Assembly: GCA_003344405.1 (NCBI GenBank)
Contig: NOWV01000139.1
Location: 1-64,000, forward strand
DNA length: 64,000 nucleotides
Direction of reading: 5' to 3'
Source of the DNA: Trichoplax sp. H2
Taxonomy: Eukaryota
Made by a program: the position numbers and the translations under genes. The notes under the pieces are model-generated. The model searched no databases. It saw nothing but the letters and a program-made list of their open reading frames with translations, and was not told the origin of the DNA. The number at the start of each line of letters is the position of its first letter. The stretch's first letter is position 1. This document shows, one piece after another, positions 25,102 to 62,832 of this stretch.

Positions 25102-28100
25102 TTAATTTCCAGGATTCATTTGTTTTTCTCCAACATTTGGCAATTTGTCATACAGCGGTGGTAGTTGAGTTTTACTCGTAGCGCCAATGTCAGTCTGATT
25201 GTAATTTAATGCGACTTGTCCAGCTTGTGGTGTCTGAACGTAAACTGGCGCTTGTTGGAAAGCTATAACTAACGAAAAATATTAAAAACATAGGATTATA
25301 AATTTCAAATCAAATAACACTGAGCTTTAATCGTTAGGTTAATGGATTCAGAGAAACTATAGATTGATTGTAGCTAATTAGATATTGGAGGTAAGACAGT
25401 AATATAGCATGATGTAGTCGGTATGATATTACTAAAAGAGTAATTAGGATGGAATACTTTTCAAAAGAAAATTTGAGCCTCTTTAGCTAAGGTAGAAGGG
25501 CTAATATTTATACGTAATTTTAAACATGCAATCATCAATTTTACAATCCGTTTTCATGGTATCGCATAGATAATTATAATCATCGAAAGAAGTGTTATCA
25601 AACGACATAAATATGGCAATATAATGAAACTTATAAATTCGCAGATTTTGGAAGAACTGAATAATTACCAGAATATACTACTCGATTAGTAGTTATTTTT
25701 ATACTGTAAAACTATTAAAGACTATTATAATAGTGAGATTGAGTAAACTTTGTATACAGAATCATATCCGGTAAGCAGTCCGTCATTTGTACTGCTTATA
25801 AGGAATTCATGAATCCAGTTTGTGCTATTAAAACTTTAAAGTGCTTGACGACAATTACATGATTTACCTTTACTTGATAGCGCTACTCGCTAAAAGTTTT
25901 ATATACCATATCTGAGTTAATATTAAGATTCTTACCTGGTTGATTAGGATATTGAGTTGGATATTGAGTTGGATATTGTTGAAATGCTACAACTTGGCTA
26001 GGACCAGTTTGATAGTGGACAGTAGTAACGTTCTATATGTTTAACAAGGGTAAATAAAGTATAAATTAACTCTGATTAACAGAAAATAAATACCGCATTA
26101 ATTTTTAGGTATATTCAAGTAATTAAGTCTATAGGCAACTTAGCTAAATATCATGAACAACAACTAATGAATCAAAATCCGATGCGGTTCTTATAGTCAT
26201 AGAAAGATGATCGCCGACATATCCTGTTAGAGATTACAGTACCACATTCTAACGATGTATAATTACTTGAACTTAGAGTGTACTTCAAACTCATATCGAT
26301 CACACTTTTCATAGTCTATCTAATGTTAACGACATCCACTAAGTTATTAAGTATTTTAACACTATCTAATCTTTTCAATCAAGAGTGTTAGCTAAAGAAA
26401 TGACGATAACTCTTAGCGAAAATGCCCGAAATACGGGTAGTGGTATAAAATAAGGAATCGGCTGAGAAAGTTATCCAAGACTTACCGTTGCCGTTGTATT
26501 ATTACAATAAATGCCATTTCCTAAAATAACGACTGATGTTAGGGACAGTATAAATCCAGAGACGGATAAAATGATAGAGACGATGTTGAACCATATAGTG
26601 CCTCCAAAGTATAATCCAAAACGGTTGCTAACCATGTAGGCAAGGCTAACTATGAAATGAGGAATGGACAAAATAAAGCTAATAATGGCGAACGCGAAAT
26701 ACGAGTTCATCTGTGTATCGGGGAAAAAAACATTGAAACAAGTCAGTTCATTCCAATCATCACTTAATAAATATCAAAACTTTCCAAGTTGCTGCTAATC
26801 AATGATTACGGACATACTGTATCTAGACATGAATAGTAAAGAGTATAGTAAACTTTCACCCTGGGTAACGGTTTAAAGTAGTTAAAATCGCTTCTAAAAG
26901 CAAAAATTTTTCTAGCAGTCTAGCGAACAACTTGATGATTTTAATCAGGTCTTAAAATATTGGTATAGCAAAAACATACTACAATTTAAAAATTTGACCT
27001 TATAGTAAGTGTAAGGAAGAAGGAAATTGTCGTCCAATCGTAAAATTAAGTAACAGTTGCTTAATGTTAATGTTATTAGCTATGGCTTAAAAGATGTAAA
27101 GATCGACGCTTATTAGACGAAAATTGTTCGTCAATCGTTATTGATCATCTATTATAGGAAGGATTATAGAATATTATTTACCATTACATACTGATCATTT
27201 ATATAGTTATTCTGTTCGATGCCATAGCAATTAGTAGCAATTAGGCTATAGATTCTTTGAGGCTGATAAAAGTAAGATTATACGAGGGAGTAGATCGGGC
27301 GAATTTTACTAGTGCTTTATTTCATTGATATAAAATCAGTAATTTAAGATTCTATTGAATGTTATTTCATTAGTACTTATAAATTGATATTTTAAACAGG
27401 CTAATTTCTATACTATTTTACAAATGCTAAAATGTCTCTTACCAGATGTGAATTAGCACGATTCTTGTGAGAAGCGATAGCAAATATGCCACATAGGATA
27501 TACTGAAATAAAAGATAATAGAAAACAATATTTAGTCATCCTTAAGTCATGATACTGTGTAGACTGTATACTGTATTGTAGGCAATAGATCATATGGACA
27601 TAGAGTAGAACATGGTAAAATAAATTAGAATGGGCAGAAATACAATTTCTAGATTTCTGAAACTGAATAAATAACATTAACTAAACTTTTTCTAACTAGA
27701 GTGGAATGGATTATCACTTAGTAGAACGAAGTATAATAATTCAGATTGGGAAAAAATGTAATTTCTAGTAATCTAAAACGGAGTAAATAACATTAAATAA
27801 ACTTTTCCTATTAAGAGTGCAATGGATTACTAATTACTAGTAAATATCAGTGTCTATTCGCTGTTCATAACCAGTACATTATACATATTACTGATATTAG
27901 CAATCTATTCCGATAACTTACAAATACGCCAGCCCAAATATCAGCTCCAACAAAGACCGTTGCGTTGCGAATATAGATATAATGGCCGTGACTATAATAT
28001 GAATAAGCAGTGGTGAAAATTCCAACGATGCCAACTATAAAGCTGACAATACCCGTAATGAGCATAGTAACACCAATCCCATAGCAAGTTTTACGGCGAT

Positions 28101-28188
28101 TTTCCGGTAATATTTTGCCAAAGTTACCGCAGCAAGCTTGATAAACTACTTGAGGTTGCTGAGTTTGTATTTGTACTTGCTCACCCAT
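25102..28188 (-). CDS. MS4A/CD20-like four-TM protein, paralog A; exons 28188-27922, 27502-27443, 26710-26486, 26032-25936, 25262-25102
   Basis: Q-rich N-terminus, CCG motif, TM1, IWAGVF|YILCGIFAI TM2 (CD20-family-like WxG...G motif), TM3/TM4 exon, tail LPPLYD. Canonical splice sites with intact frame. Confidence 0.8.
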
Positions 28189-29220: not shown

Positions 29221-29330
29221 AAATTAAAGTCCTCATTCTGCTGATTAAAGTACATAAGATTGATTAAATATAGTATCCGATATTTAATCAATCTTATGTA
29301 CTTTAATTAGCAGAATGAGGACTTTAATTT
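29221..29330. repeat. Near-perfect inverted repeat: 51-bp arms, 8-nt loop, one mismatch
   Basis: Arm 29221-29271 is the reverse complement of 29280-29330 except for one G/T pair. Confidence 0.97.
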
Positions 29331-32170: not shown

Positions 32171-34313
32171 TCACTCTGAGTACTGCGGCGGTAGTGGTTG
32201 CTCAAGTTGTTGCATTGGTTGATCAATTATAGTTTCGGTAGTTATATATCGAGATCGGTCGGATAGGCCTGTATGGACGTAAAGTGGTTGAAGAGGCTGC
32301 TGTGCTAAAACTAGGTTATGCAATCAATTCAAGTCTTAGGAATCTGATTAGTTTATGTGTTATAACGTACTGGTATTTCGGTTGATTTTTATTATTTAAA
32401 CTTAATAATCTAATTTTGTTTCATTATAAAGGCTAAGTATGAGATGTCAACTGGACTAAACTTTAAGAATAATAAAGTGAATTGATGAAATAGTGATTAC
32501 AATCAATTCTTATAGTAAGATTTGGCAACAACCCAAACTTATTATTATTATAAATACAGAAGAATCTTTTTATGTAGACTTGAAATGATACTGCTGTCTA
32601 TCTACGAGTAAATAAATTAAATATGCAGTAGCTGTTCATATTTTGAAATTACTCCTACAAGACGTTTTTACTTATACTATATCATTGCACTAGTGTCGTT
32701 AGACTCACCCAGTTGATTTGGAATATGTTGAATTGTTGGTACTTGATTGCTGTCGCCCTGATGATGGGCAGGAGACATTCTCTTTTATTTATTATACAGA
32801 AAACAAGAAAAATCAAAATATTAACAAATATTAAGAAAAGTCAGAATTGAAGTTTACAAGAATAATTTAACCAATGCCAGTCTCCATCATAAATCGTTAC
32901 GATCATAAACTGGAAGGATAGTATAATATAAGTAAAATATGATATTTTGCTTTTACTGTGGTATTTCTCCACTCTAACGAAGATGTCAAGATAGTAAGCT
33001 GTTACTTGAGAAATATTAATCTTAATTTATGATATGCATTATTAATATATTTAGTTACAGAATTCACGGGATAGCCAGTGGTTTACGTGCATCATAAGAA
33101 TGCACTACAATCCTGTAGATAAAGATTCAATATTCTCATAGCTAAGCCGTATGGAACTATAATTCTATGAAAATTGATGACACTTGACGATGTAGATTTA
33201 AAATTTAGAATAAACTATTTAATTCATTTGCTGTAAGCTAAGAAAGGGTATATGTGGTATATTACTATGAAGATATACATAGTTTAAGCCTTAGGGCTAC
33301 TTATTATTTCATTAATTTTATCAAACAATCCAATTCTACTTACAGCTAAAGTTGGTTTGCAATAAATGCTATTACTTAAAATAATGATCGACGCTAGCGA
33401 GAAAGAGAAGGCAAGGGCTGATAATAATATGGATACTGCATTGAACCAAACACTTGCGATAGCATTGGCATTAAGCATAGTACCAAAACTTATACCACAA
33501 TGAGCCAAGGAAAGTAAAAAGCTTATAATAGATAAAATAAAGAAAGTATGTGCCTGTAGAAAAAGAGTGTTCCATATCTTACTCACTGGTTGAAATCAGA
33601 ATACTCGTTGTTAATACTCTTCATCAATAATACCTTATACTTCAGGAAATAAACCTTAAGTTAAAAATATTTAAAACAACTTACCAAATATCGATTGAAA
33701 CAATTTTTATATGTAGAAATGGCAAAAATTCCTGTTAAAACATACTAGATAGTAGAATAGACGGAAGGTATTCATAAAAATTTTCATCAAGTAAAATTTT
33801 TAGTAACTGGATTCGCATATCTTAAAATCCAGTTAGAGTCGAGATTATTTAAATTTGGCAGTTATGGTATACGTATACTCATGTTAAGTTATTTTATGCC
33901 ATATTCAAATTAGTAAAAGCTCATATTTAAATAATATCAAAGCCTTTAGATGCATAGGATCCTATGATTGCAAGGTATTTTATCCGTTTAAATTATTATG
34001 ATATAAAATTTTGATTTATATCCATCGTTTAAAGACTTACAAAGATTCCGGCCCAAATATTCGGGCCTATAAAAGCACTCATATTGTAAAGATGAATATA
34101 AGTTCCGTCATTATTATGATGATAGGATGAAGTAGCAAATAATCCAACGATGCCAATAGTAAGACTAATTAGGCCAGTAATAAAAGTACTAACGCCTATG
34201 CCAAATACTACCGATCGTACACGATGCGGTAATTCCTTTGCAAATGGAGCTCTACAAGGTTGGTACGTAATACGAGATTGTGGAAGATAAAATGGTGTTT
34301 GATAATTTGCCAT
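32171..34313 (-). CDS. MS4A/CD20-like four-TM protein, paralog B; exons 34313-34041, 33744-33685, 33553-33344, 32781-32709, 32310-32171
   Basis: Same exon layout as paralog A; IGPNIWAGIF|YVLTGIFAI; WFNAVS; tail LPPQYSE*. Confidence 0.8.
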
Positions 34314-37290: not shown

Positions 37291-39658
37291 TTATCTGCTT
37301 GCAGGAATTTGTGCTGTTGTCGAAGGTTGGAAATTGGCGTATTGTGGAGGCTGTGCTACTTGATCGACAGGCACTTTAGTAGTCATTGAAGTTTGTGGCA
37401 TAGCTACAGCTTGCATATACACTGGCTGACCGGCTGGATATCCGGTAGCTAAATAGAATTAGAAAGGATAAGCTATTATGTGTATATCTCTAATGATGCT
37501 AGTTGGAAATGGTCGTAATTTTAAGTTAGTTGCTGATTAATGGTTGATCTGTTTATTTTATAATCGGAGGGCTACATACAAATCATATATATATATATAT
37601 ATATATATATAACTACCTCTGAAAAAGAATAAACACAGACAGTAATCATATTAGCAACACTATACGTTATTATATTAACAACTAACCTATTTGTCCAGGG
37701 TATTGCTGAATTGTGACTGGCTGAGCTGCTGCTCCTTGATAGTAAACAGCTATCGCATTATGCTAATCAAATTGTCGGAGGAGGGAAAAATTTAGATTAT
37801 TTTAGTTCAGATAATAAATTAAAAATTTTGATCTTCCTTAATACTACTAACTTATAGTTTTCAGCTCTTTAGTTAATAAATTGGTTATAAAGTGCAATTG
37901 TAAATATATAATTGCACGATTATACCGTAACTCTTAATATTAAGAGCTCTACTGAAATGTAATTTTTGGACATTGCAAGCATGGTAGCAAATTTTAGAAT
38001 TCATAGTATGACTTACAGAATTAAGATAAACTGTATATGCAGAAGATTTCTAATTTATAAACTTACGTTGTGGCTAGGTCCGCAGTAAATATGATGACCT
38101 AAGATGACAATACAGGTCAAGGCGAGAGAAAATCCCACAATTGAAGTAAGAATGGAAACGATGTTGAACCAAATGCTATACCTAGCATGGTAATCAAACA
38201 TAGTGCCAAGGCTTATGCCAAAGTGAAAGATGGACAAGATGAAACTGATTATCGAAAAGGCAAAAAAAGAGTTGATCTAAATGGAAAATTAAATCAAATC
38301 ATTTCTATGAGACATACTAAATGACAAGACCACAGAATATTTTTGTCAACAGCATTAGTGTAGTTAGCCCGTTAATATATCAATCGGAAAACTATACATG
38401 TAAAAAATGAACCTTCTTACCAGATGATGGTTGATTCGATTTTTCTGGGATACGATTCCAAAGATGCCGCATAAGATGTACTAAAATTTGATGAATAAAA
38501 ATAATTTATATCTGGCCTACAAAAGAAGTTAAACTCGAATTGTGCCTAAAGGATCTCCGCGATAAATTTTGTCAGTCAATAATATACTGAAAGTAAAATG
38601 TGATCGAAGGTACAGAAATACTATAATACAGAAAATTTTGTAGTATGTTTACTTTTATGGGATAAGAAACTGAGTGATGCCTGATAGAAAGATTTCTTCA
38701 GATGAAATCTAAACTTTTGCCGGCCAAGGCAGCTGCATGGTAGTGAATATTATGGAAGGCAAAAGAAATCATTTTATGGTACTCCTGGTTAGGCTAACTA
38801 CTGGTAGAATAGAGGTAACTAATGGATAATATGAAGATTTAGTATTGTATTTAGATCTCAGTTTTTGAAGTAGAATTTAAGGCCGTAGTCTGTAGATAAG
38901 ATTTAAACGTATGAATTTAAATTTTCTGTAGCGTTTATTAAATCTGTACGTTAGTTTGTATCTGTATACTGTAGTAAACTGTAGGTAAATTTTGTTATAT
39001 CACCTTGTGTAGCTGATATGGAAATGATATTTTCTAGCAGGATTGCTACTGATTGGCCTGAGTGCACTTAACTTTAATTATTTTCTGATTTAGAAAACAT
39101 TACTTCATGACCAGGGTGATCCTTACAAATATAAGTTTGGGTCTGGTGTTAACACTATAGTAACGTCGCTTTAACAAGATTTAAGTTGTTTCGAGAGTAG
39201 ATATACTCGCACATGATTGACAATACAATTGAACATAAGATTTGGATAGATCGAAATTTAGATCACTTTTCCAAGAATAAATCAATCAAGCAAATGTAAA
39301 ATCTTAAAACTAGTTTATGAAATCTATTACAGTATAATTTACTTACAGGAATTCCAACCCAAATGTTAGGGCCAATATTAACTGCTAGGTTGTAATAGTG
39401 ATAAATGATTGAGGTACGACGAGCAACGCTATGTAATGGATGATAGAAATTGTAGTAGCTGCTGGTGGTAAAAAATCCAACGATGCCAACAGTCAAACTA
39501 ATTATACCATTAATAAGCATGGTGATACCAATGGTCGTGGCCAAAGTCTGCATTTTTGGCGTTAAAGTTTTACCAATTCGACTACAACAAGTTTGGTAGA
39601 CTACTTGTTGTGTCTGCTGAGGTTGATGTATAGCTTGTGGTTGATTTGGATTAGCCAT
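37291..39658 (-). CDS. MS4A/CD20-like four-TM protein, paralog C; exons 39658-39347, 38480-38421, 38276-38067, 37762-37687, 37448-37291
   Basis: MANPNQPQ..., TCCS, IGPNIWVGIP|YILCGIFGI, WFNIVS, tail QPPQYA. Confidence 0.8.
37585..37611. repeat. (TA)n microsatellite in paralog C intron 4
   Basis: About 13 AT dinucleotides seen directly. Confidence 0.95.
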
Positions 39659-45807: not shown

Positions 45808-46455
45808 TTGAATTTTATTATAATAACTTTACCAATACTATTCAATAGTAAATGAAATACTTACTAGATACTGAGTAAAAGTCACTGCTATTTTTTGATT
45901 TCATATTGGCAGTGATCCTAAGGTGCATAATAGATCTTTGCTAAATGATATTGTTTTTCTAGATATCTTGAATGAAATCTTCAATTCAATAATAGCACGT
46001 ATGAATATAGTTCCATCTAATCCTCCAATCAACGTGCTTATTATGCTTTCAATTAATTGCTATTTCTTAGGCAATCCGCTTTGGCCAATTAACTTACCGT
46101 GATGACAATAAATGCATTCATTTCTATTGGATTTTATTTCCTTTGTTTCGCTATAGTATATTCCATCTTTTTGCCGGCTAAATTTCGGCCCATATTTAAA
46201 TAATAACCATTAATTCAATTTTCAGATTTATTCTTAAAAGCCAAACTTGGTTTTATAAAAGATTGAATTTCAATTTTTAAGAAGCTAGAAAGGTTTTAAG
46301 TAAGCCTAAGAAATTTCAATATCAGAAAGAGATTTTCATTTCTTAATATAATTATTGCGATGTGTTATTTAGTTGAAAAATAGGTTAAAAAATTAAGATA
46401 TTGATATTTTTCGTCGTATCTTTTCACAGGGTTACTCTTCTCTGAAAGTGAAGCT

Positions 46456-49400
46456 ATGGCTACTTTGCAACACCAGCAAAATCCACAGCAATATCAATTT
46501 CAACAGCAGCAACAAATACCACAATCAATACAGGTTCAGGCTCCATCAGTAAATTATACCGGTACTACATGTTGTGGCCCTTTCCGCAAAGTTTTAGTTG
46601 GTAGATCGCGTTCTACCGCTTATGGAATTGGCATCGCTATCCTAATTACTGGTCTAGTCAGCTTGATTACTGGTATAGTTGGATTCTTTGTCAATGGATC
46701 CTGGGTCTATTTTTACGGTCGTTATAGATATATAATTAATCCTACTCCCTATATTGGTGCCAATATTTGGGCCGGGATATTTGTAAGTAAAAATATCAAC
46801 ATTAATAGATGATCTCGTTTAATGAATATCATTAATACTTTCCATGTCTGCAATAATTTAAATAGTAAAGTACATCGGTATTTGATCCCCTGAAAGCTGT
46901 ATCGATTTATATCAGCGTTGATTTATAGTGAAATTGTAATCGAAACTTATAGATTTTGCTTTATCGATAATACTCGCACCACCGATAGCTCTTGAACTAA
47001 TATGCTATTATGATTTTTTAGAGAGGGATTGCTATTAATTGGAAATCAATAGTAGTGTTAAAGAAGCTTCGCTTATTCTTTAGACTAAAATTATCTCATT
47101 CCTTGGAAATCTTTGCTAACACAGCTATTTTGGAATAGACAGTGATGAAGTAGATTAAAATCAAATAGCGAAAACTTTATTACAATAATTTGTACCCTGA
47201 CCAAATTACCAATTAGTGAATTCTATCCATTTCTTAAAAACCTAATATAAGCTTAACTGTAAATGCGTACTATACTTACAGTCAATAATATCTATAAGTA
47301 CATACATAATCTTACAATTTTACAATTTAAAATAATGTTTGACTTAGAATTGCACAATATTGTAACCTTAATCTTGATCTATATTGGGGACTACATAACG
47401 GCTATATCTAAATCGTTACGTGTAATTACTGTATTCAGTACATGGAAATCATTTCATACTATGATATTTCATTTAGAACCAATAACCTAAGTTGTTTGCT
47501 TGGCTATTTCAAATAAATTATATACTACTATACTTCCTTGTGATTAAAGAACAAAATCATCTTATATCTGGCTATTCCTTTTTAAAATTGTTGCTATTTT
47601 GATATTTCAATAATTGTACAGTTGAATTCGATTTCGTTTCCCCCTATGTCTCCTCTATCCAACGTCTTTCATGATAATCATTATTTTTCTAAGAATTGCG
47701 TTATTCAATTAATTCTGTTTTGACGGACTGAAATCAATTGCTTTTTTGCTTATTTATTTTAAAATAGTAGTTTTTGAAGATGACTTCATGATCTGAATTA
47801 TTGCTGACAATCGAAATTGATTTTATTCCTTGCCGCTTCGTTTATATTTTTATACCTTATTGTCACAAAACAGCTTTGCAACAAGATAACGTAATGTACG
47901 ATCAATAAGTCAATTCCTTGAACCACGTATCAAGGAACGATATCTGTACTATCACAAACACTTTTGCTCTACTAGCAGACTACACAAAGACTTAGATGCC
48001 TCGTATTTTACGTTAAACACTAAGTTTAAGAATCCACTTTATTACACGATATACTGCATTTATATACTATTCCTCAATAACTAATGAGTCATAATTAATA
48101 CAATTAACATTGGAATCATTTACTGCATTAGATATTATAGCTACTGCTTCCTTAATGCAGATAACAGTATTTACGAACATAGACATGTGATGACTAATAC
48201 AGAATAGTCAGATTACGATATGTCCCTATCACGGAACATTTCCATGATAATTTACAATCTACCATAAGTAAATTACAATCACAATGATTCGAACCGTAAG
48301 TAGATGATTTGCATTCCCTATTATAACTATTAATTTCAGTATGTGTATAAGTGTTACTGTTATAAAAAGTCAGTGCTATATTAAAACACAGTATATCCAA
48401 ATTAGAAGTTAAATAAGGATAGGCTAACAGAATTATCTTAACATAGATATTTCTACTCTAATACAGTACATAACACTGCCACACTTACAATTAGTGATTC
48501 AAAATGATTTGTTTTAAACCATAGAGATTATTAGATCCGAATCTTTCTCACTCTCATTTCTTAGCAAGATTTAAATATAGTACATTTAAAATCGCATGAA
48601 TGCTCAAATACCCGTACTGATTTCATTTTCTTAACGTTTTCTAGTACATCCTGACTGGTATCTTTGGAATTGCTTCGTCTAAAAATCAAACCAATCCTCA
48701 TTTGGTTAGGAAAAACATTTGATTCTAAATACTTTACGATGCCTCAACTTATTTTCTAGATAGAATAAACACATAGTAATACCTTTAGTCCTAATCAGAT
48801 CGCAAAAGTTTGATTTCTCGTATTGTATTAAGCATATCTCCCTTCATGTTTATGAAAATAGTTGAACTCTTATTTTGCTTTTGCCATCATTTCCTTAATT
48901 CTGGCAATACCGCATTTTGGTGTGAGCCTCGGTATATTGGTGCAGTTTATCCATGTCTTGGGTCGCACGATATGGTTTAACAGTGTCGCCTTAATATTAT
49001 CCATAATTGCTTTTTCTTTGTCCTTGTCATCCTTGGTTATTTTGGGCAATAATGTGTATTGCAATCAATGTAAATCGACTGTAAGTGACGTTGAAAAGAT
49101 GGAATAATGTTATATTCAGCCGTAAAGTACCGTTTACTTACGCGGTAAAGTTTTCTTTACATCAGTCACGATTTATTATTAATCTACTCTGAAATACCAT
49201 AACAAAATCTGACAATTAACTGGACTTATACACTCCAGTATTATTGTTACCATAAATCAAATTCGATAAAGTTTAGTATAGAACTTCTTGCAAATCATAT
49301 ATTAATCTCCAGAGTAAAAAATTTCTAAAATTAGCTAACTTTATTACGTTATTGAAATAAATTATACGATCAAATTTCGGTAGGCATTTGGAAACTAAAT

Positions 49401-51521
49401 TTACCATACTTTTATATACAGTGATATCTAGCTAGATTAAAAAGCCATTAATTCTGCTTTTACAAGCATAGTATTTAGCCAAAATAATGAGGCAATAATC
49501 TTACTTTTATTTTAACGTAAAATTATCGAAAACTTATCCTACGATTTTGTAATCATGTTAAGAAATGGGACAATCGCTTTAAATCATCCAATAACTTATA
49601 GTAACCTTTGTAGTACTATTCTGGGCCTATTAATTCATTTTCGGTCCAAAAAATCCTTAAACAGTCTACAGAAAAGTTTAATAAAGATAGTGCTGCTCTT
49701 TACGTGATAGCTCACAATTTCTACGATACTCGGCATTTAGAAGTTATTTATCAGCAGAATATTTTATAATCAAAAGCACGTAAAGGGTTACTTATGGATT
49801 ATTTAGAATTTTTAGAATGCGAAAGCAATCTGAGCGATCTCAAAACGGCATTATTCAGTTATTAAAAATGTGAATAGACAGGAGAGGATAGGATACCGTT
49901 AATGTAACCATGTTTTGATTGGCCTATCCCCTGGTCGATGACTGATTAGTATATAATTGCCTTTATACCAACTTAAGTTACTGCTATGTTTTAGCTTTCA
50001 AAAATCATCTACGCATATAGTATTATTTCAAGCTAATATAACCCGTAGATAAGCAATATAGATCTCAAAAAGGAACGAATCTTGATAAATATATGTTCAT
50101 CTCTAATTTAAATGTTTTGTTTTATGACAGAGTTTCTATCGTATTAAAGTATGATTATTTAAGCCTTTATTGCTTAAAAATTCATACTATATACTCATTA
50201 AAAGTTAAGAAACTTGTAAATGTAGATATTGATACATCTTTGATTCATACCTTAACACTGAAAATTTCAAGCGTTCAAAAGTTATCCACTATATAATTCA
50301 ATTATACGCTACTGTATACTTTCAGTTATTGATAGTAGAGGTTCATTAGAAATTGACGTAATCCTTCAAACCGATAATTCTGAATCTTTAGCGCTATTCC
50401 GATCTATAAATTTTTGAAATTTAGTCTATACAATTATTTTAAGCTATGTTTTTTCTGTGATCGGTTTATGAAACTGTAAGGAATGGATAAAAATGTTTTA
50501 AGTGGTCTTATATCAATATTATTTAATGGTTTAATTTATCTATAGACTGTTTCGGCGGTCCACTATCAAGGCGCTAATCAAGTAGTAACCATTCAGCAAT
50601 ACCCAGCACAACATCCAGCTCCTTATGCAGTCCATTATTCTGCTCAACCTGGTGCGTATCTTTTGTATCATTACAAATACTTTGCTTCCAAAAAACAGAT
50701 ATTACCCATCACTTTCAGGAAATATTAAATTGCAAACTTTTCGAATTTAATAAGAGAAATAATTGCTGCAATTCTATCAAAATAAGTAGCTATAAGTATC
50801 ATTCATATGAAATTCCAAAATACCAGTAGGTAATTGGTAGTGTAGACATCCAAAGTAAAGTCTATCGACATACTCGTACTATTTAATATCTGAAATTTTA
50901 CGATAGATATTTTTTATATAAAAAGATTCATTCTAACAATAGGCATCAATTCCGATACTGCAATCATAACATTAACTTCTATATTTAATTATAATACTAT
51001 ACAGTTCATTTAAATTTCATCAACTGTAGTCCAAGTTAATGCAGAGCTAGAATCTCGTGAAAAATATTATTAATCAAGTATATAAAATACATATAATGCT
51101 CATCGTGATAAGGAATACTATGATATAAAATATTGCTTTTTAGCTTACATACGAGTATACTCAAACTAGATCCGTAATAGAATATCTTATCTGTATGCAG
51201 TCGAATTGTAAATACGTGGAATAAAGCACATTTAACATAAAAGAATTTTATTTACAATTTCAGGAAATTTGTTTAATAGCCTATTTGAAATCACTATGAT
51301 CTCGGATGCATTACTAATGTACTATGGAAAATAATTTTAAATTTATACTTTTATTATTAGTTATGACTTTCCAACCAACTGTTCCGGTATATGTTCCCAA
51401 TTCAACAACTGGGCAATATGCAGCCGCTGCTAATCGAACCGCTATTAACAATCCAGAGAAATCTCAATTGCCGTCTTATAGCAATTTACCAGATTTACAA
51501 AGTTCAGCTAACCAGCCTTAA
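46456..51521 (+). CDS. MS4A/CD20-like four-TM protein, paralog D; exons 46456-46782, 48645-48704, 48862-49080, 50546-50651, 51361-51521
   Basis: Poly-Q N-terminus, TCCGP, IGANIWAGIF|YILTGIFGI, TIWFNSV, tail LPSYS. Its TM3/TM4 exon is most like paralog A. Confidence 0.8.
47861..48483 (-). mobile_element. Solo LTR copy 2 (623 bp) in intron 1 of paralog D, TSD CTTAT/CTTAC
   Basis: End-to-end similar to 40423-41052; TG...CA termini; 5-bp flanks match at 4 of 5 positions. Confidence 0.85.
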
Positions 51522-53170
51522 ACGATAAATACACGGTGTAATTCAGAATATCCTGTCTATATACAATGGAAGTTATTCTATGCAACGATAATTACTATAT
51601 AACATATATATTATCGTGTTTTTATCGCCTATGCAAATAATTATGACATATGACTTCATATATAAATAATGCTAGGTTATAAGTCTTGCTTTGCATACCA
51701 GTAATGTACCGTAACATATAAATTCCCATACTTACAAAATTGATGGCTTATACTAAAACATGGTTAGATATCATTTATTCGAAACCCTGTAAGAACTAAG
51801 CATAAGCAGCTATGCTATAAGTGATGGCATCAAAGCTGACCACATATTCATTATCCTTAATTTCCATTGATTTGCCAAGCTGAAATGCTTAAGAAGACAT
51901 TAGCATCAGAAAAATTAATTAAATTTCTTTAGAATCAAATCTAAAAGTGCAAGTAATTCCTGGTAAGGCTAGCCAGTTTGCAATACCTGATGGCCTCTAC
52001 TATCGAGATAATGAATTTTTACAAGCTCGCTAGTATTTATAGTAGCCTTTTACTTGCTTACTCAATAGCTTTCTAAAACAAAAATATTGCAAAATGTACA
52101 GCAGAATAAGCCGACGTAGAATCTTATTTAAATACTAATATTGTATTAATTAATTACTCATAAAGCAAAACAAACCGCAAGTATGTTAAATGAGCACATT
52201 ATCGTAAACCGTCAGTAAAACGACGGGAGTTTGCACTAGTATCTCCTAATACTTATGAAGATAATGATGAAAAAGTTAACTAATATGGCTTTAGTTTGTT
52301 AACATCAATTAGTTTAGTACTTTATTTCGTCTTCGGCCTATTTAATAAACTTGTGTAGGCAGATATTGTCTCTGATAATTGAAATGTCCTTACCGTAAGA
52401 AGTGTAGTTGTAAAATATATCAGACTTTGCTCTGTCCTACTTTAATATACTTTGCACCCGTAGAAATTTGTATTGCTTCGATGATTGGATCTTGCCTTGT
52501 TATTTTTGATCACACCATCCTTCAATGTACAGTATATACAGATTTTAGCATGTTGAAATTAATTGACTAGACTGTCGATTTGCAATGCTCGTATTTGACT
52601 TATTTTTTGATATGTGTATATAGTATTGATTACAAAGAAGTCATTAAACTCAATAAGTAAATTAATAATCCAACCTAAATCAGTTATAGCATTTAGTTAA
52701 TTATTGAAAATTTGAAAAGGTAAGGTATCTCATACATCTCTTGCTTATTCCTTATCGTATGACTGTTTTATGATGATCCACTTTCTAGTCAGTGTTCAAA
52801 TAGACGATAAATCAAGCTTGTTTTAGGAACTCAGTTTGTATACCGTATCTATTTTGTTATTTATGAACTGGAGAATTGAATACTAATTGTTTAAAAGAAT
52901 ATCATACTATCAATTTCTCATGATTAATGCATTTGGTCGTACTACATAAAGCATAAATTTCTACTTGCATAATAAATATTTTCAAAATCTACAGTATTAC
53001 AGAATAAATTCAAAAGCTAAAATTTATTAAATTATAATTTAACAGTTTTACGTTCTTACCTTTCGATAAAACGAATGAGCTTCTACTTGATATTTTTAGG
53101 AAACGTATTTGACAATTTGTAGAGTCTAAACAGATATTGCAAGTTTTAAAATACTATATCTGCCGCAATA

Positions 53171-55807
53171 ATGGTGCAAAACATGCCGCAAACCCAAATT
53201 ATGGAGCAACCGCCAGAGCCTCATCAGCAATCGCAAATGCTTGCAAGTCCTTACATTATTAATCAGGGCTATGGCGGATCTGTATCCAGAGTCCTACCGC
53301 AAAGCATTCAAATCCGTATCCGCACCGTAGGCTTATTTATGTTGATTTTGGGTCTACTTTCATTAATTCTAGGAGTTATTGGGTTTTTTCTTGATGGATA
53401 TACTATCTATGACGATACCCCCTCATTTTCTATTATTTGTAATGTACGAGCTTACGTGTACCTTGGAACCAACATATGGTGTGGATTTATTGTGAGTATA
53501 CTGTTGTGTAAAGATCCTGTAAGCCTTAGCTTAATAATATAGTACGATAATCCTTAGTAGTTCTCTATGATTGAACGAGAATAGATTATTGATTCCTCAT
53601 ACGAATCGATTAATTCGTCTTTTGTGATATTGAGGCAAAAATTTCTTCTCATTGTTCATTCTGACTTGTTAAGATTTGCTAGTATCATCTAAGAATATCG
53701 GTATTAGCAATATTCATCTTCATCGTACAGATTGATTAGGATTTTCTAAGATATTTTATACGATGGCTAATAATTTATTATCGTTAATAATACTTTCATT
53801 TGATTGCAGTATGCTCTCAGTGGAGTATTTTCTCTCCTATCCAATCAATTCAGGGATAATGCTCATCTGGTATAGACTACGCTGATGTTATAATAGCTTA
53901 AACAGTTTATAACTGAAGAATTTTGCTAATTTATTTCGGAAGCTTTCGATCTGATATGGCTTCTAAATGATTACTTTCTATTTGCAGATGAATACTTTTT
54001 ATGCTTTCAGTATTATCAGTTTTATTATGTCTTTGGCTCATTTTGGCTTAAGCTTCGGGCTAATGTTTCATGATGGACAGCATTGTATCTTATGGTATAA
54101 TGCTGTTTCTATGCTGATATCTATTGGTAGTTTTGCTCTCTCTCTCGTTGTCATGATTGTACTTGGCCATCAAATATATTGCAGATCTAATCTTCGGGTA
54201 AGTTAAAATACTACTTCTGGCTGCTGCATGCCATTGCATAGTTCACTCAGGTAAACGATTAGTATTAAGCTTAGCATATAAAACAACTACAATCGCATTC
54301 ATATTTATGTTTCTGAGAAGTACTGCATAGTATCATTTATAATTATGAATGTCTACTTTTTGCTTTGCTCTTTTTCAAGAATAAAGCATGTTGTTAATTG
54401 CTAAATCTGGCTAATAGCAAATTAAAATCGTTTAATTTTCAACTGCTTTTATATAAATTGGTCTTTAATTACAGAATGCGATTTCAGTTCATTATATGAC
54501 TGGCCATCAAGTTGTTGCTTTCGGCCAACCAGGTATTTTGTTAATTCTTTACAGATTACTCTTAATTGGGATATACTGTAATAAGCACTAAAATAGAACT
54601 ACTTTAATCGTAGTTAGCCTAATTTCGTTCCAATTCATTTGAGAAATATTCTAACGTATATATTAATTGCCTCAATTATTTACGCTTTTAAATAAATCGG
54701 AAGTTTAACTTAACTACGAGCACTTAGCTTAACTATTATTCTTATTAGCCAGTAAGTTTACCTCAAAATTATTATGCATAAAATTAATATACCGAAATTA
54801 TTACGTACAGTTACAAGGCAATTGCTATTATAATTTAGTCCAAGATGTCAGTATATCTAAGGTAGCTATAATTTACGAAATCAGGCACTTTGCAAAGTTG
54901 AGTAACTTAATATTATTACACTACTAAATTATTACATCGGTGCACACCGGTATACAGAATAGGAAAATTTGAGCAATTTACAGATTTCAATTCAATTCAA
55001 GGATGATTGTTAATATTTTATCATTAATATCATTAAAATTTTCAAATTATTATGGCATAATTATTATGTAAGAAAGAATCACGCAAAATTTATTAATTTA
55101 ATTAAGATCATTCAGCGATAATAATGTCTTCTATACAGCGCATTATTATACTACTAGCAGAAAAGAGAGTAAATATAGAACTCTGACTTTTTATGATTGT
55201 AGCTAACCCTTTAATTCTGTTCTTGAAGAAATCCAGGAACAAAAATAATTCTCTTCTCGATCGTAATTTAAGATCGATAGACATATTCTTTTTACTTTCT
55301 TTACAAACACTATAATAAGTTGTTTAAAATTTCACATTAATCAATTTATAGAATACATTTAATTGAGTAATTACCACACTGCATACCAGTTTCTAATCGA
55401 GGAATAGTAGTTGCGAATCGCTACAATGAAATAATGTTTAGTATCAAGAACTAAACTCTTAGCGATTTTAATATTTTCTAGCAGCGATTATACTTAATAA
55501 GGCTACTCATATGATTCTCTAAAAGTGCGCTTAATTAAGATGCTTTAGCCATTACTACATTGCCTTGTAGCATAATTAAATGCCGGTATCATCTTAATTT
55601 GCTATGAATGCATTCTTAGTACCAATGGGAGTCGCTTATTCCGCTGGGCAACCTGTTTATGTCCAAACAACACCTAATCTACAGTATACAACTGAGATGA
55701 ACCGGGCTGCAATCTTTCCACCACAGCAACCGCCACCTCAATATGATCAATTGGTAGCAATAAATCGAAACGATAATTCGAAGGAAACAGAGAATATCAT
55801 CGGCTAA
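53171..55807 (+). CDS. MS4A/CD20-like four-TM protein, paralog E; exons 53171-53491, 53810-53869, 53988-54197, 54475-54532, 55620-55807
   Basis: LGTNIWCGFI|YALSGVFSL, WYNAVS, tail PPPQYD; same exon phases as the other paralogs. Confidence 0.8.
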
Positions 55808-58800
55808 TTGTCTTGCACTTTGATTGCTAATTTTTACTAACTTGATCTAAAAGCTTATGCAATGGATGATAAACAACTCATTAATTTAACCCTGTACATA
55901 TAGTTTAAGTTAATGTTATAACTAACAGACAAATGGATATATACTGAACTTACTCAAACTCACGAGGTACGCCGATTATATTTATTGGACAGTATTCTTC
56001 ATTTAGTTCTATAATATTAAATTGTCTTTCTCTCAATGTAAAATCCGTGATATTTTCAACTTAAGTTTATTTCTTAGTATGGTTCTTCAATAATGACAGA
56101 TGATGTTAATCATGTACTTCAAATCGTTATGAGACTAAAAATTTTGTTAACATAACTACTCATGTTTAGCTTTAGATGATCAGTAAGGATGCTAGTGGCA
56201 AAATTTTGATAATCTCTAAGACAGCGTTACAGACATAAATACGTGCAATATTATTATTTTTTACTAAGATGCAATCACATTCATTATTGGATTCTAATTA
56301 CTAGTTTAAAGTGTTTAGTCATTAATAATCAGAATTTAATTGCTTGTAGTTATTACTACTATTCTTAAATCGTATCTTAAAAATATTAATAGAATTTAAT
56401 GTTTCGTTATCAAGCTGATTACTATTTCTCAGTGACTTATGAGATAGCGTGCACTTTACAAAGTAGTACTCAATAATCTTAAATACGGTAGAGCTTATCA
56501 TAATTAATACAAATATATCCATGTATCCATAGCGAGATTAACTAACTTAAATAACTATAATAGTACTGTCGACTAAAGTTTATGAACAATGTAATCAGTT
56601 GTTATCTTTACCACATTTGGAAAGATAGATAAAAATATACGTTGCGATGGTGCTAGTAAAAGCCTTTACTATATTAATTATTAGTTAACGTTAGCAGTAG
56701 TCGCTCCGGGCTAGGACAAACTAGTAGAGACTAGAAATCAGATCACTTGTGAATAAAAAGTGCTAGTGGTTTGAAAGAAACCTGAGTAGTTGTGTGACTG
56801 TGAGGAAAGAGTTAGTTTTCCCTTAGAAGAAGACTTCCAAGTTAGTGGAAGACATACACAATTACTATAGCACCTGACATAACCAAATCACATGTAGGAT
56901 TTGTGACAACTACATAGTTGTGAATCACTGACCACAAGTTGGATGTGCGATTCGTAATCTTAGCTTTCATATGAAATAACCATCGATGCAACTGCAAATT
57001 CACTATCATTACTTTTAGTCAGTTGAGGATTAAGTAGTTTTTGGCTAAGTTCTGTATTCGACTTAAGGGGGACGTCTCGATGGGATATTATTACTCGTAT
57101 TATTTACGTCATATAAGATGAATGACTTCATGTATGCTGCTGTGTGATGTTACTAAAGGTCTAACTTGGAAATAGGTGATTAATATCATGTTAAGATTTA
57201 GAATAATTTTATAATTGCTTTAAAAATTTTAAAAACTCGGATCTTTCAACCATTAACATAAACGGATATTTTATAGTAATGCAATCTTTAAGTAGTGTAA
57301 AATAATTAGCAAAAAGGCAAGATAATGTGGCTTTAATCTGTCAATTTATACAAGTATGCTAATCATTTTTGAGAAATTTGAAAGAATTTTTTTTTCGTTC
57401 GGTATCTATAGAGATTTAATTAGACTAAATTCTACTGAAGTTTATTTGGCGGTTGCATACCAATGTGATCTAATTGCCTATATGCATATGTGATATTATC
57501 GAGTCGAATCAATAGTATACAAGTATTATATCGAAAGGATCAATCCCTATTGGTGGTCTGAATAACTTTTTAAATTGATTAGATAGGCTCCTTTTGAACC
57601 AAGAACCAATCACATGATCATCAATTGTATCAATATTAATATTTTACTACGCTCAGTTTTAGCTTGATTGGTTCCGCTATAACCCATTGTAGATTTAGCT
57701 ACATACTAACAAATAAAAGTTAAATTTTAAAGCTTACAATTTATTATATCTTTAGTAATGAACTAATACGCTAACAGCTGCGTTACTGTATGTCGTATAG
57801 CATCTCAATAGTGTTGACATTAGATGACGCATTTTATGTAGATAGAAGTTATACTAGGGTAGGTTGTATTCCCAATTTTGTTAGTGTCGTGGTAATTCAT
57901 TGTTTCAAGTTTTAATACTTGAAGCCTTATTAGTATCGATAATTAACTAATAACATTACATTAATCCTAATCTGTGATATTTTAGATCATTACCGTAACA
58001 GTTTTCGGTCAGATCGGAAAAGAAGAAAAATCAATTTTCAAGGTAGTAGTCAAAAAAACTTGCTTATATTTATTTTATTTTACTAGTGCCTTTATTCCCG
58101 TATTTCGAAAATAGGAGAGAATAACAATTTTGTTATTCTAATAAAATAGCACTCTTTGATTAAGCATGAACAGAAAATTGTTAAATTTTTCTATAATGCA
58201 TATGTACTGTATGAAATTTTACATTCTTAATTGCTTAATACTATAAATTAACGTTGATCAAAAAACAAATTGCTAAGTAGATCTTTATTAGAAAATTAAT
58301 GCTCGTGCTTGCATTGATACTTTTGCTTCTAAAAAGTCATAATTTATATTGCTTATTGGTTCTTGACTACGAATACATCTTTACAAACGGCAATTATATT
58401 ATAATTATTCTTCCATCGGCCTGCTACGATTATGAATGTGCAAATAAAAATGAAAAATTTTCTTTATTTTGGTGTCTCACAAATCACAAATTTGAAGAAA
58501 ATTGAGTCGCCTATCGTTCCTAGTTGATTTAATTTTATTCGGTTGATTTTCGTAACATATTACTTGATGAAATATTTCATGAAGACATATTTAAGGGTAA
58601 AGTATGATTAGTATGCTTCCGTTGCTGCTTATAGCTACGATTTATTACTCGCATTTAACTAAAATGGACATAAAATCTTACTACAGAGCAATGAAATATG
58701 CCGTAGTATTCCATTTATATTTGAAAATTAATTCGCTCGTTTTTGTAAGCCGTTATCATTTGTTTCATGATTCATTCTTTAAACAAAATAATCAAGTAAA

Positions 58801-59959
58801 CTGTGCAAGTTAATGTTTTAAATGAAATCTTTTCTTCTCGACTAGTATCTGCCAAAGCTAACTCAAAGTTCAATTTGCATAGGAAAAACTAATTAACTCA
58901 TTTTATACGTATTATATCAATCTCCTGTGAACAAAGTCATCATTTTGGGTGGTTATAGTATTCTTGCAACTACCTTAATGCTAAAATATTGCCATATGGA
59001 AGTATATGTAAATTAAACTTTTCTTCTTCATTATTACCATCTTATGAGCTTATAGTTCAGAGTAACTCGAAAAATTAGCGTCCTTTTCAACCATTTTCCA
59101 TTTGTTATACCAATTTTTCAGTGAAACCATATCAATATATTGTGTATGGTACTCTTATGTTGAATCTTAAGCTGCTATTTGCATACAAGAATTATAGCTA
59201 TTTCCTTCTTATATATGCACAATGTAATAGTAATAGCACTATTCTGCAAGTTTTAATGTATGCTACTCTGTGGTTCTACCTGAAAGTATACTTTTTCTTC
59301 GTGACTTATATCTATTCTAACACGTACAGTTCAATTTACGTTAAAAAATTTATCGTAACGACGTTTCCTGAATTGCTAAAACTACTTCAATTTATTCTAT
59401 GTGTCTGTTATGGAATCCGATTACTTTATAACGTGAAATTAGTAAAAATGCATCATACTATACCTACAGTACTTTAATTAAACGTTTACGAAATAGGGAT
59501 TTTTCTTAATGTTGCTGATCAGTGTGCTTGTAATTCACTTTACTTCAGATTACTTGCTAACTTTCTTCCAAAAATTTTTTTTGCCCAAGAGTATCGCTTT
59601 TTAATGTATGCCTCGTATTCTTACAAGGAATCGTAAGATATTTTAGCAGACGATAAAGTAGAAAAATTTTCCCACAAATTCTTACTTTCTTAAATTCTTA
59701 CTGCCAGACTATCTTCCTAAAAATTCTTACATTTTTTTCAAGACTATAGCCTTTAGTGCGCGCTTTGTATTCTCACAAGCAATTTTAAGTCATTTAAGTG
59801 ACTAATAAATTTGTTATTGGAAACAAATTTTGTTGAAGGTATACTTGGTAATTTGTTCATGCACTATTTGAAACCATTTTTGTACATTTCAGCAGTCATT
59901 TTAGATAAATCATCTGGTTAGAGGTCGAACTTGACGTGCAGCCAAAGTCTTTCTTCATC

Positions 59960-62832
59960 ATGACTACCGTAATTAATACGCCAAATTTGCAGACTATTCC
60001 AGCTCAGCAACCTCAAATATTGCAGCACCCACAGGTAATGCAACCGCCACAAATAATCCAACAACAACCACAAGTTATTCATACTCCAATTCAGCAAGGC
60101 TGCTGTGGTCCAATGCCAAAAATTATACCAGATAACTTGCGACCTGCAGTATTTCGAGTGGGCATTTGTGCGTTAGTGAATGGTCTTATATCCACCATTT
60201 TTGGTATAGTGGGCTTTTTTACCACCAGTGTTCGAATTCAAGGCCACCATTATACTTATTATTATTCCAACGTTCTGGCTTATATTGCTCCTGATATTTG
60301 GTGCGGAATATTTGTAAGTTGCTCTAAATTGTTGATGTGATCATTAATCGATAATGTAATGAATCCATTTAATGACTGCATGACTAAATAATAGTGATTG
60401 AAATTACTACTAATCCTATTAATAATTCGGATCTGCAATTTTCTATACTTGCGCTGTCTAACTTAAGATGCTTGCGACAATCTTATAGTATGCTTTGAGT
60501 GGACTATTTGCCATATTATCGGATCGCAACAGAAGGAATGATCATCTAGTAAGAATTATAACCCATTTTGAACAGATAGTTTAAGATTTAATTTTACTTA
60601 GTCACTTCAATCTGAGCTCAATTAAGTAAAATTACGCAATGATGAAGTTTGTATATAGTGAATTCTATACTATATTTGACGGACAATATTAACTTTATAG
60701 ATGAACAGCTGTTATTCCTTCTCTATTATGAGCTTCATTTTGTCGCTCTTCCATATTGGTCTCAGCTTTGGCTTTATTTTTCATTACCCATCTCATTTCA
60801 CAGTTTGGTTCAATATTGTGTCGCTGATATTAGCGTTGTGTGGATCGGCTTTCTCCTTAACCCACCTTATAATCCTTAGCCGCAATTTATATTGCAGATC
60901 GAATGATTCGGTAAGTGTGAAGGTTGTTAATGGTCGTTACTTCTGAGTTAAAATATCGAGAAATAAAATTGTCTAGGTCCGATTAAATTAGCATGCAATT
61001 ACGCTAAAATATAGCAAATACAAATCTATTATTTATAATCCTTGCTTAATCTTGAAGCTAGACCAATCGATAAATATAATTGTGAACTAAGGTTTCGGAA
61101 ATGTGAAATATGCTGCTAGACAGCTTATTCGCATTCATCGATGTATAGAATTCCTTTAATTAGTACGGTAAATATCATGCCAAAACATGAACAGTATCTA
61201 TCTAAAAGGTATAATTTCTTCAGACAGCTTATTTGCATTCATCAATGGTCTATATTACTGTAATTAGTACAATATCATATAAAAACATGAACAGCATGCA
61301 CCTGATTATGGATAATGCCAATAAACTACTAATAATCCATTCTTAGTCTTGATGCCAGACTGATCGATAAGTGTTTTTGTGAAGTAAGATTTCAGAAATG
61401 TACGGTCTCCTACTAGATAGCTTATTAGCATTTATTGATGACCTGCGGTATTCCTCTAATTAGTGCAATGTAATGTCAAACATGAACAGCACGCCCCTAA
61501 AAGATAAGATTTCTTAAGATAGATTATTTATATTCATCGATGTGCAATACTCCTCTAATTAGTGCCATAAGTGTCAATGTGAACTAAAATTTTCAGAAAT
61601 GTACGATAGACCGCTACAGTTTATTCGTTTTCATCGATGTGCAGCAGTACTCTAGTCGGTATAATATTATATCAAAACATGAACTGCCTGCATCTAAATA
61701 GTGTAATTTCTGTTGAGAATACCTATAATATTATTCCAACTTCTCCATTCTAAGCTATTTAATTCGATAAATTATAAGTTATTTTTTATGCAAGATACAT
61801 CATTATTCAATGTCTATTTTTACTCATTACAGAAAATGGTTGCTGTTCAGTATAACGGAAGCAATCAAGTTGTCACTTTTGGACAACAAGGTATTTCCAG
61901 CACATTTAATAGTACTTTTAATACAGCCACCGGTAATTTATAGCGTAGATTTTCATTTATGATTTAAAGATAGTATACTGATGCAGTCTTGCCTAACAAA
62001 TTTCCTCGTATAAAAATTATGATATCTTGGATTACAGTTCTTCAAATTACGATTAAATGATCACTTATAGAGGGTTTAACAGAACTCCACCAGGAAGTTG
62101 TTTGATTTTATTCTACTTAAAAGTATTAGCAGTCGGTCGATATAGAGAGTTTAGAGGTAACAGATTCATATGCAACCATGACTGTTAATGCATTAGATTA
62201 TTTAAGAAGATAGTCATGATGGAATGGTATAATTTGGGTGAACTTTATTAACTACATAATAGTAGATTTAGTTTAGATACCATATACCGTTGTTTTGCAA
62301 TAATCTCATCAGATCGACAATTGGAGAATGTTTACTTTATGAATCAAGGTAGTATATATTCAAAGTATTAAACTTACTGAAAAGTTTTCATGCCTTTTAT
62401 TGATGCACTTTTAATCAAACAATTGCAATATCATACCATAAGTCACTACAGTAATCTTATTAATGCCCTTAAATAGAGGAAGCACTTGCTTCATAAACGT
62501 AGTTGATACACTGTACTTTAGTTGGGTACTTTAACTGAAGCATCATGTGCCGGCGAATTTAATCTCTATAATTGCTCTATATACAATAAATTCTGTTGCA
62601 ATTTAATCGTGATTAATATTCTATCACGAAAGATGGTATACCGCTTCTAATTCAGGATTTAATTTTTGTATTAGCTATCGTCTATCCAACGTCTCAGCCA
62701 GTATATTTACAGGCTGCACCCGGGGGACACTATACTACAGCTATGAATCCTAATTCAGTAGCACCTACATCAATTCAGCAAGTAGCACCTCCACAATATG
62801 GAAATTTACCTCAAACCAAAATATCAAATTAA
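59960..62832 (+). CDS. MS4A/CD20-like four-TM protein, paralog F; exons 59960-60313, 60489-60548, 60701-60910, 61833-61890, 62675-62832
   Basis: Q/P-rich N-terminus, GCCGP, IAPDIWCGIF|YALSGLFAI, WFNIVS, tail PPQYG. Confidence 0.8.
61060..61710. repeat. Degenerate modular tandem repeat (about 5 copies of a ~100-bp core) in paralog F intron 3
   Basis: AGA(C/T)AGCTTATT.GCATTCATCGATG...CTCTAATTAGT...AAACATGAACAG recurs near 61118, 61222, 61415, 61518, 61617. Confidence 0.85.

Follow-up and report, generated by a model that had tools for sequence, protein, structure and literature searches.

A tandem array of CD20/MS4A-like four-helix genes with variable outer loops and PY-motif tails in Trichoplax sp. 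H2

What does one of the simplest animals do with a row of four-helix membrane proteins that share a conserved core and differ on their outer face? The question is raised by a stretch of 64,000 nucleotides from Trichoplax sp. H2 (contig NOWV01000139.1 of assembly GCA_003344405.1, positions 1 to 64,000, hereafter the window), in which six paralogous genes, named here A to F, lie between positions 25102 and 62832. A first-pass annotation had described them as an array of six MS4A-like genes, independently expanded, and had read them as a chemosensory or non-self recognition repertoire whose first extracellular loop would resemble a complementarity-determining region (CDR). The analysis presented here indicates that the array is genuine, that its genes are expressed, and that it arose by expansion of a known family within its own lineage. 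Concerning its function, we favour, tentatively and with somewhat less than even confidence, that the proteins are cell-type-specific membrane adaptors or co-receptors linking a partner or ligand to ubiquitin-dependent uptake.

On sequence comparison and predicted fold the array proteins are members of the CD20/MS4A-like four-helix family. When 11 public proteins were compared with the Pfam CD20-like model (PF04103, gathering cut-off 27.9 bits), three passed narrowly (28.2-28.3 bits; the orthologs of A (P0001), C and E (P0007)), three remained below the cut-off and five gave no match, three of the latter being models short of exons. None of eight single window exons matched the CD20 model and a genome search with it recovered none of the array loci, the domain being interrupted by introns. 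Compared with solved structures, a profile built from 96 homologs matched FceRI-beta (E 2.4e-15) and CD20 (E 9.5e-8). The predicted structures of the A and C orthologs consist of four long helices, with a per-residue model confidence (pLDDT) mostly >90; in the A ortholog these span residues 29-59, 82-102, 107-140 and 145-177. The top fold match of this model is FceRI-beta (Z 17.6, root-mean-square deviation 2.3, 143 aligned residues), followed by a chain of the dystrophin-glycoprotein complex that we take to be sarcospan (Z 16.5), a uroplakin chain (15.7), CD20 (12.6) and synaptogyrin (12.3). In Foldseek, MS4A2 and CD20 chains hold ranks 1-7, with a best E-value of 1.6e-3 and none <0.001. Two other families were considered and rejected: the occludin/MARVEL label that UniRef gives to P0001 and P0009, with no MARVEL match in Pfam and synaptogyrin far under FceRI-beta, and claudin, also far under FceRI-beta at Z 10-11. 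A homodimer prediction for the P0001 core scored 0.00 and counts neither way.

Both ends of the proteins are predicted to be cytosolic, with the loops between transmembrane helices (TM) 1 and 2 and between TM3 and TM4 outside or luminal, because a leader peptide is lacking and basic residues cluster before TM1: a hydrophobic leader was found in 0/6 window proteins (maximum KD11 <=0.84), and the 15 residues before TM1 contain 2-4 Lys or Arg, compared with 0-2 within the 21-31-aa first loop. The homology to MS4As of solved structure points to this topology as well. A Cys stands immediately before TM1 in 5/6 proteins and might be a possible lipid anchor.

Modelled exon by exon, A to F encode proteins of 249-290 aa without internal stops, and the six loops that had been quoted for them were all located as expected, those of A, B and C on the minus strand and those of D, E and F on the plus strand. 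Each of the six comprises five coding exons; the splice sites are canonical (AG acceptors, GT donors) and the intron phases are 0,0,0,1. Exon 2 measures 60 nt in every one of them and in 12 of the 14 paralogs modelled (I has 66 nt, L 63 nt). The intact frames and the invariant exon 2 of the first-pass annotation thus stand, as does its identical five-exon architecture when coding exons are meant; D and F have an extra 5′ non-coding exon seen in RNA contigs. These contigs, from four runs, were mapped over 43,400-63,300 (genes D, E and F; runs X18-X21, with small shares, were left out), and join 12/12 coding introns of the three genes in three of the four runs, which come from three studies. No listed joint of D, E or F was found in run X5.

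Six is the count for the window only, since the array continues past it: on its contig (C174 of genome G000) there are 14 loci, reaching ~107 kb. Exons 1-3 are intact in 12. The two broken loci are H, in which exons 1 and 3 are interrupted by stops and no long loop is encoded (L014:9400-10000 and L015:1-320; C174 ~71.4-72.3 kb), and M, with an early stop in exon 3 (L018:1-1000, C174 ~102-103 kb), whose public identifier nevertheless has a row in the expression table discussed below. Exon matches elsewhere in the genome add at least 7 loci on C273, 4 on C297, 1 on C339 and 1 on C234, which brings the family to ~27 loci as a lower bound. First loops are short (8-12 aa) in N and M, as they are in those C273 genes that were modelled and in the C297-type genes. 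The array probably predates the split between two placozoans, because exon-1 fragments that we read as another placozoan's pair with A, B, C, D (three fragments), E, G, K/L and N; from their sequences, these fragments probably belong to a further placozoan, and two more, identical to H and L, were excluded from the comparison. In a quick tree of 85 rows, for which the non-placozoan rows were gathered with the placozoan profile and which holds no named vertebrate rows, 19/19 placozoan rows form one clade (SH-aLRT 95), in line with the independent expansion that had been proposed.

The paralogs differ mostly on their outer face. Mean pairwise identity among the six is 0.51-0.59 in TM1-4 and 0.46 in the intracellular loop, and only 0.20 in the TM1-TM2 loop and 0.16 in the TM3-TM4 loop. 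The first loop (21-31 aa) contains 27% Tyr+His (20% Tyr, 7% His). A conserved scaffold with a variable, aromatic-rich first loop was therefore correctly described, although that loop is not the only hypervariable part: the TM3-TM4 loop, of 8-12 aa, is as variable. In the model of the A ortholog the first loop forms a predicted beta-hairpin (residues 62-66 and 69-73), whereas the 31-aa loop of the C ortholog is unstructured, with no hairpin and a pLDDT of 63-79. A codon model (our own GY94 code, relative branch lengths fixed from the protein tree) fitted to 11 long-loop paralogs gave ratios of nonsynonymous to synonymous rates (omega) of 0.13 for TM, 0.41 for loop 1, 0.36 for loop 2 and 0.25 for cytosolic parts. 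Loop 1 exceeds the cytosolic parts (twice the log-likelihood difference, 2dL, 17.7) and stays <1 (2dL 44.8). With a CD20-type fold, a loop predicted outside that evolves faster than the other non-TM parts, and paralogs expressed according to RNA contigs on D to F and to single-cell modules, none of the three outcomes named beforehand as speaking against the first-pass proposal (no such fold, a cytoplasmic or no faster loop, mostly silent paralogs) was obtained. The site model M2a brought no gain over M1a for 11 or 6 paralogs, hence no sign of positive selection, in tests of low power because fourfold sites are near saturation (they differ at 0.62, saturation being 0.71) and the loop alignment is uncertain.

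Some loops are nonetheless well kept. Compared with the other, more distant placozoan, the loop of B is identical at 18/22 positions (probable ortholog P0026) and that of C at 17/31, with TM1 values of 19/23 and 13/23 respectively, while the loop of G retains only 4/21; three D-like loops in the other placozoan's contigs are strongly divergent. Among the pieces listed, the loop-coding exon 1 differs at 1/353 nt in D and 1/423 nt in F, vs 4-6/220 nt in D exon 3, and 3′-end pieces of the RNA runs differ by 0.6-2.2% at the nucleotide level. The outer loops are the least constrained part of the proteins, some are fixed per paralog, and an arms race is not seen. Their diversity would reflect old paralog specialisation together with weak constraint rather than an ongoing arms race. 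As a separate observation, the two Trichoplax sets differ by three amino acids in the first loop of K (exon 1, L016:7309-7653); nothing else in the array hints as strongly at recent selection.

The opposite end of the proteins has a different character. All six window tails contain an [LP]PxY motif (PY motif), one each, 2-20 residues from the end; shuffling predicts 0.55/6 and 0/5000 shuffles reach 6. In 5/6 tails the motif extends to PxYxxPhi, a number that 0/20000 shuffles reach. A PY motif overlapping YxxPhi is the arrangement known from ENaC, and a PPxY end is also ascribed to some vertebrate MS4As. G also carries the motif, so that A to G all retain it, and it is kept across phyla, because [LP]PxY occurs in 37/64 non-placozoan tails vs 6.2 after shuffling. 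No immunoreceptor tyrosine-based activation motif (ITAM) was found in the six tails (0/6). WW matches stand beside HECT matches at three loci of the genome (C508, C397 and C208). PPxY and LPxY motifs bind the WW domains of NEDD4-family ligases (PMC8811627, PMC7342019). ENTREP/FAM189A2, a protein with CD20 homology, binds ITCH through PPxY motifs and promotes CXCR4 ubiquitination (PMC8811627), and TMEM127 is described as a four-helix PPAY adaptor of WWP2 (PMC7342019). We infer from their sequences that the window tails may carry both a NEDD4-ligase signal and a sorting signal.

Where the genes are used can be followed through the co-expression modules in Table S3 of PMC10580291; the numbers below are module scores as given there, and the statements reach as far as that table. 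A is in the pan-peptidergic module in two species (0.744 and 0.792), and C (0.662) and E (0.739) are in the pan-peptidergic module too. TrispH2_008319, which by gene order is probably B, belongs to the peptidergic kappa module (0.914). D appears in Tadh.thistle1, an unannotated module (0.829), and in the TrH2 fibre module (0.545). F and K are in the gland module in T. adhaerens (0.529 and 0.558), and in the H2 data in an unannotated module (F 0.732) rich in cathepsins, cubilin, DMBT1, IRAK4 and NACHT genes. G falls in the lipophil module (0.923 and 0.898), which includes V-ATPase, EHD4 and tetraspanins, J in the pan-epithelial one (0.596) and N in lipophil (0.917) or 'unknown 1' (0.935). The gland module also takes in five neighbours (61151-61157), two of them shown as family members. 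The identifiers 008324, 008325, 008328 and 61175 have no row in the table. Paralogs lie in differing cell-type modules, though modules of this kind do not show the mutually exclusive use that the first-pass annotation had suggested looking for.

How might these features work together? The MS4A bundle is conserved, the outer face varies by paralog and cell type, and the tail would be able to recruit a NEDD4-type ligase and sorting machinery; these features fit together, and it is on this fit that the adaptor reading is based. The closest fold match, FceRI-beta, is a receptor subunit, the PY motif is kept across phyla, and the paralogs are spread over different cell-type modules, all of which favour this reading; the array proteins would join ENTREP, TMEM127 and NDFIP among the NEDD4-family PY adaptors. 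An old tandem CD20/MS4A-like family would have been divided among placozoan secretory cell classes, its members working in the membrane as adaptors or co-receptors. Which membrane partner or ligand is bound, differing by cell type, would depend on the helix bundle together with both variable outer loops; the tail PPxY, mostly PPxYxxPhi, would bind the WW domains of a NEDD4-type HECT ligase and a tyrosine-based sorting adaptor; and the complex would then be ubiquitinated and taken up, or routed via endosomes and granules.

Several observations weigh against an adaptor role. A PY motif marks pure substrates too, and fits a chemosensor desensitised by uptake equally well. I, J, K and N (C174 76-107 kb) have no such motif in the last exons predicted for them, and the tail of L was not found, hence the motif is not universal in the array; furthermore, PxYxxPhi occurs in only 11/30 evaluable non-placozoan tails (background 0.2). 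Module membership is co-expression, not localisation. Finally, when eight paralogs were compared with T. adhaerens proteins, outer loops changed at 8/202 positions vs 10/1213 elsewhere (p 0.002), an enrichment also expected from selection on a ligand-binding face. The difference holds against cytosolic positions (5/560, p 0.008); three of the eight outer-loop changes are in K and only two in window genes. This comparison is at the protein level, and if DNA divergence is 1-2%, a loop divergence of 4% would be about the neutral level.

A reading that overlaps with the adaptor role is that the proteins are non-GPCR chemosensors as in mammalian MS4As, their aromatic loops binding small food- or microbe-derived molecules on peptidergic sensory-secretory cells and on digestive cells, leading to Ca2+ entry and secretion, with the PY tail resetting them by uptake. 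We regard it as possible but doubtful. The outer loops vary most, and the B loop kept at 18/22 in another placozoan is what a fixed specificity would leave. A, C and E, together with B by gene order and in one subtype (0.914), are in peptidergic modules of PMC10580291, although F, G, K and N fall outside them, in modules that are gland, lipophil or unannotated, and three of the four peptidergic members are pan-peptidergic rather than subtype-specific. Elsewhere in the family, mouse and human MS4A1 give ligand-evoked Ca2+ signals in HEK293 cells (PMC11026480), and ascidian MS4As combine clustering, palp-cell enrichment and, in Botryllus, loop selection (10.1101/2022.08.15.492342); in contrast, no positive selection was found here, at low power. 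The proteins could also be structural, as four-helix components of secretory granule, endosome or apical membranes whose luminal loops drift and whose tails sort the proteins themselves, which we consider unlikely. Their role would then resemble that of sarcospan, uroplakin or synaptogyrin and the loop variety would have little meaning, an idea we hold to be no more probable. The fold matches to the dystrophin-glycoprotein chain (16.5), the uroplakin chain (15.7) and synaptogyrin (12.3), the unstructured C loop, the expression of paralogs in secretory cell classes (PMC10580291) and a loop divergence that might be neutral are consistent with it. Against drift speak a loop omega <1 (2dL 44.8), the Tyr-rich composition retained across phyla, and the loops of B and C, as conserved as their own TM1 in another placozoan.

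The second half of the original proposal, a repertoire for non-self or allorecognition in which diversifying or balancing selection acts on CDR-like loops, is in our judgement very improbable. The loop is Tyr-rich and variable in length, with a hairpin in the A model, but the C model has none and loop omega is ~0.4, M2a equalling M1a for 11 and 6 paralogs (tests, again, of low power). Gene birth and death is seen in the array (H and M are broken), K has its three loop changes and the three D-like loops differ strongly in the other placozoan's contigs; the paralogs, however, are old (fourfold 0.62, saturation 0.71) and the loop-coding exon 1 is no polymorphism hot spot among the pieces listed. 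No tail has an ITAM. As for cell types in PMC10580291, IRAK4, NACHT and DMBT1 genes occur in the module to which F and K both belong, and the link to fibre cells is weak and confined to D.

The comparison with vertebrate MS4As is made at the level of the family. FceRI-beta/MS4A2 and CD20/MS4A1 (PF04103) share with the array the four-helix fold and helix order (Z 17.6 and 12.6), tandem clustering and variable outer loops. They differ in which loop is long: in vertebrate MS4As the first extracellular loop is short and the second larger, whereas the array has its long loop (21-31 aa) first and only 8-12 aa in the second, where FceRI-beta inserts ~10-14 residues relative to the array proteins. Unlike FceRI-beta, the array proteins have a PY tail and no ITAM. 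In human MS4A1 and MS4A2 a 57-nt exon encodes late TM2 and the inner loop, and it stands where the array has its 60-nt phase 0-0 exon. TMEM127, likened to the array by description and not by homology, is a single gene rather than an array. It has four helices, both ends cytosolic and a PPxY near the C-terminus (PMC7342019). ENTREP/FAM189A2 combines a CD20-like membrane part with cytosolic PPxY motifs, a likeness again by description; it is reported to cross the membrane once and to have a tail of 343 aa and two motifs, whereas array proteins have four helices, 73-94-aa tails and one motif (PMC8811627).

Is the first loop peculiar to this array? A profile search of 1.84 billion proteins returned 172 matches at E <=0.001, of which 150 were listed, and 96 proteins were aligned, 65 rows being non-placozoan. 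Among these listed matches, the first loop measures >=15 aa in 42/65 non-placozoan rows, and 28 of those have >=4 Tyr. From these sequences, the Tyr-rich first loop is not confined to this array or to placozoans, and the suggestion of a loop particular to the array falls with the 28/65. Of 20 homologs whose records were checked, the named ones belong to Phallusia, Clavelina, Ciona and Lingula (tunicates and a brachiopod), and the ESM Atlas provides, as a lead only, mollusc, echinoderm and cnidarian clusters at 0.90-0.93. In the tunicate homologs recovered the Tyr-rich loop is present, and PPxY often accompanies it. Ascidian MS4A-like genes (Ciona, Botryllus) resemble the array in being clustered, lineage-specific duplicates with diverse extracellular loops and sensory-secretory expression, 9 of them enriched in palp axial columnar cells (10.1101/2022.08.15.492342). 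They are a separate expansion, with extracellular-loop positive selection in young Botryllus clades and none found among the old placozoan paralogs. Neither the Tyr-rich loop nor the PY tail appears in the passages of that preprint consulted here, and its supplements may describe ascidian tails or loops. PMC2826416 states that invertebrates lack MS4A-like genes and places the family from jawed vertebrates on; our profile and fold results argue against this at the family level. In the literature searched, which lacked most subscription papers, the Tyr-loop and PY-tail design and the placozoan cell-type split were not found described; among the papers listed, searches for MS4A or CD20 in Trichoplax and placozoans gave nothing on this array, none on cnidarians contained MS4A, and none gave the vertebrate MS4A exon structure. 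The PMC12013895 supplements contained no match. The surprise is limited, since clustered variable-loop MS4As were already reported in ascidians and the array genes are in public annotations, some with a CD20 label in a published table.

The individual gene models are as follows, exons being coding exons in window coordinates. Three genes lie on the minus strand. Gene A (25102..28188, 269 aa, tail PPLYDKL) was modelled with exons 28188-27922, 27502-27443, 26710-26486, 26032-25936 and 25262-25102 and has its TM1-TM2 loop (21 aa) at 27952..28014; in the public model the last exon begins at an acceptor lying 6 nt further upstream, and over exon 1 the identity to a Trichoplax adhaerens protein is 100%. 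Its exon 4 contains a 12-nt repeat (TQYP unit, 25947-25978) with one copy fewer in the T. adhaerens protein. Gene B (32171..34313, 249 aa, PPQY two residues from the end) has modelled exons 34313-34041, 33744-33685, 33553-33344, 32781-32709 (predicted from DNA, with an A-rich acceptor) and 32304-32171, and its loop (22 aa) at 34071..34136. Gene C (37291..39658, 271 aa, tail PPQYANF), whose model is identical to the database protein P0167, has modelled exons 39658-39347, 38480-38421, 38276-38067, 37762-37687 and 37448-37291; its loop (39377..39469, 31 aa) is the longest of the six.

The other three are on the plus strand. Gene D (46063..51521, 290 aa, tail LPSYSNL) has a 5′ non-coding exon to 46299, exons 46456-46782, 48645-48704, 48862-49080, 50546-50651 and 51361-51521, with introns RNA-joined in 3/4 runs, and a 21-aa loop at 46690..46752. 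Gene E (53171..55807, 278 aa, tail PPQYDQL) has RNA-joined exons 53171-53491, 53810-53869, 53988-54197, 54475-54532 and 55620-55807 and a 24-aa loop at 53390..53461; unspliced RNA contigs of two runs at 52190-53491 extend ~1 kb 5′ of its start codon, a long 5′ leader. Gene F (58040..62832, 279 aa, tail PPQYGNL) has a 5′ non-coding exon to 58040, RNA-joined exons 59960-60313, 60489-60548, 60701-60910, 61833-61890 and 62675-62832, and a 21-aa loop at 60221..60283. The public models P0003, P0004, P0006 and P0011 of F and G omit 1-2 helix-coding exons; RNA backs all F exons.

The surrounding DNA holds further features. Upstream of the array, an amnionless gene (Pfam PF14828, E 1e-10) has exons at 16499-19843, with a 66-nt tandem repeat of ~10 copies between them at 17462-18125. 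A near-perfect inverted repeat with 51-nt arms and an 8-nt gap lies between A and B (29221-29330). A dispersed ~630-bp repeat, 92-97% identical, is present upstream of C (40423-41052) and in D intron 1 (47861-48483), the latter copy lying under a deep stack of divergent RNA contigs, as would suit a multi-copy element. Contig depth is also high at 44600-45400, variant-rich and probably a repeat, and at 52000-52700. The 120-codon open frame between C and D (43496-43858) has no Pfam match and presumably resembles a retrotransposon remnant.

What would the array mean for placozoans and for the family? About 27 members are found in one of the simplest animals, several of them in the peptidergic cells, which researchers examine as forerunners of neurons. 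The Tyr-rich first loop and a predicted NEDD4-binding tail seem to define a wide invertebrate branch. At its boldest, and improbably in our view, MS4A chemosensing would predate neurons: the Tyr-rich first loop would read environmental ligands in peptidergic cells, the PPxYxxPhi tail would reset the receptor, and the PY-tail/Tyr-loop design would be the ancestral CD20/MS4A state, expanded separately in placozoans, tunicates and other invertebrates. If true, the peptidergic cells of a nerveless animal would use a private set of MS4A-like receptors, one of them confined to a single peptidergic subtype. The function of most MS4As is unsettled, and the array allows a test of whether the ancestral job of the family was sensing or ubiquitin-linked trafficking.

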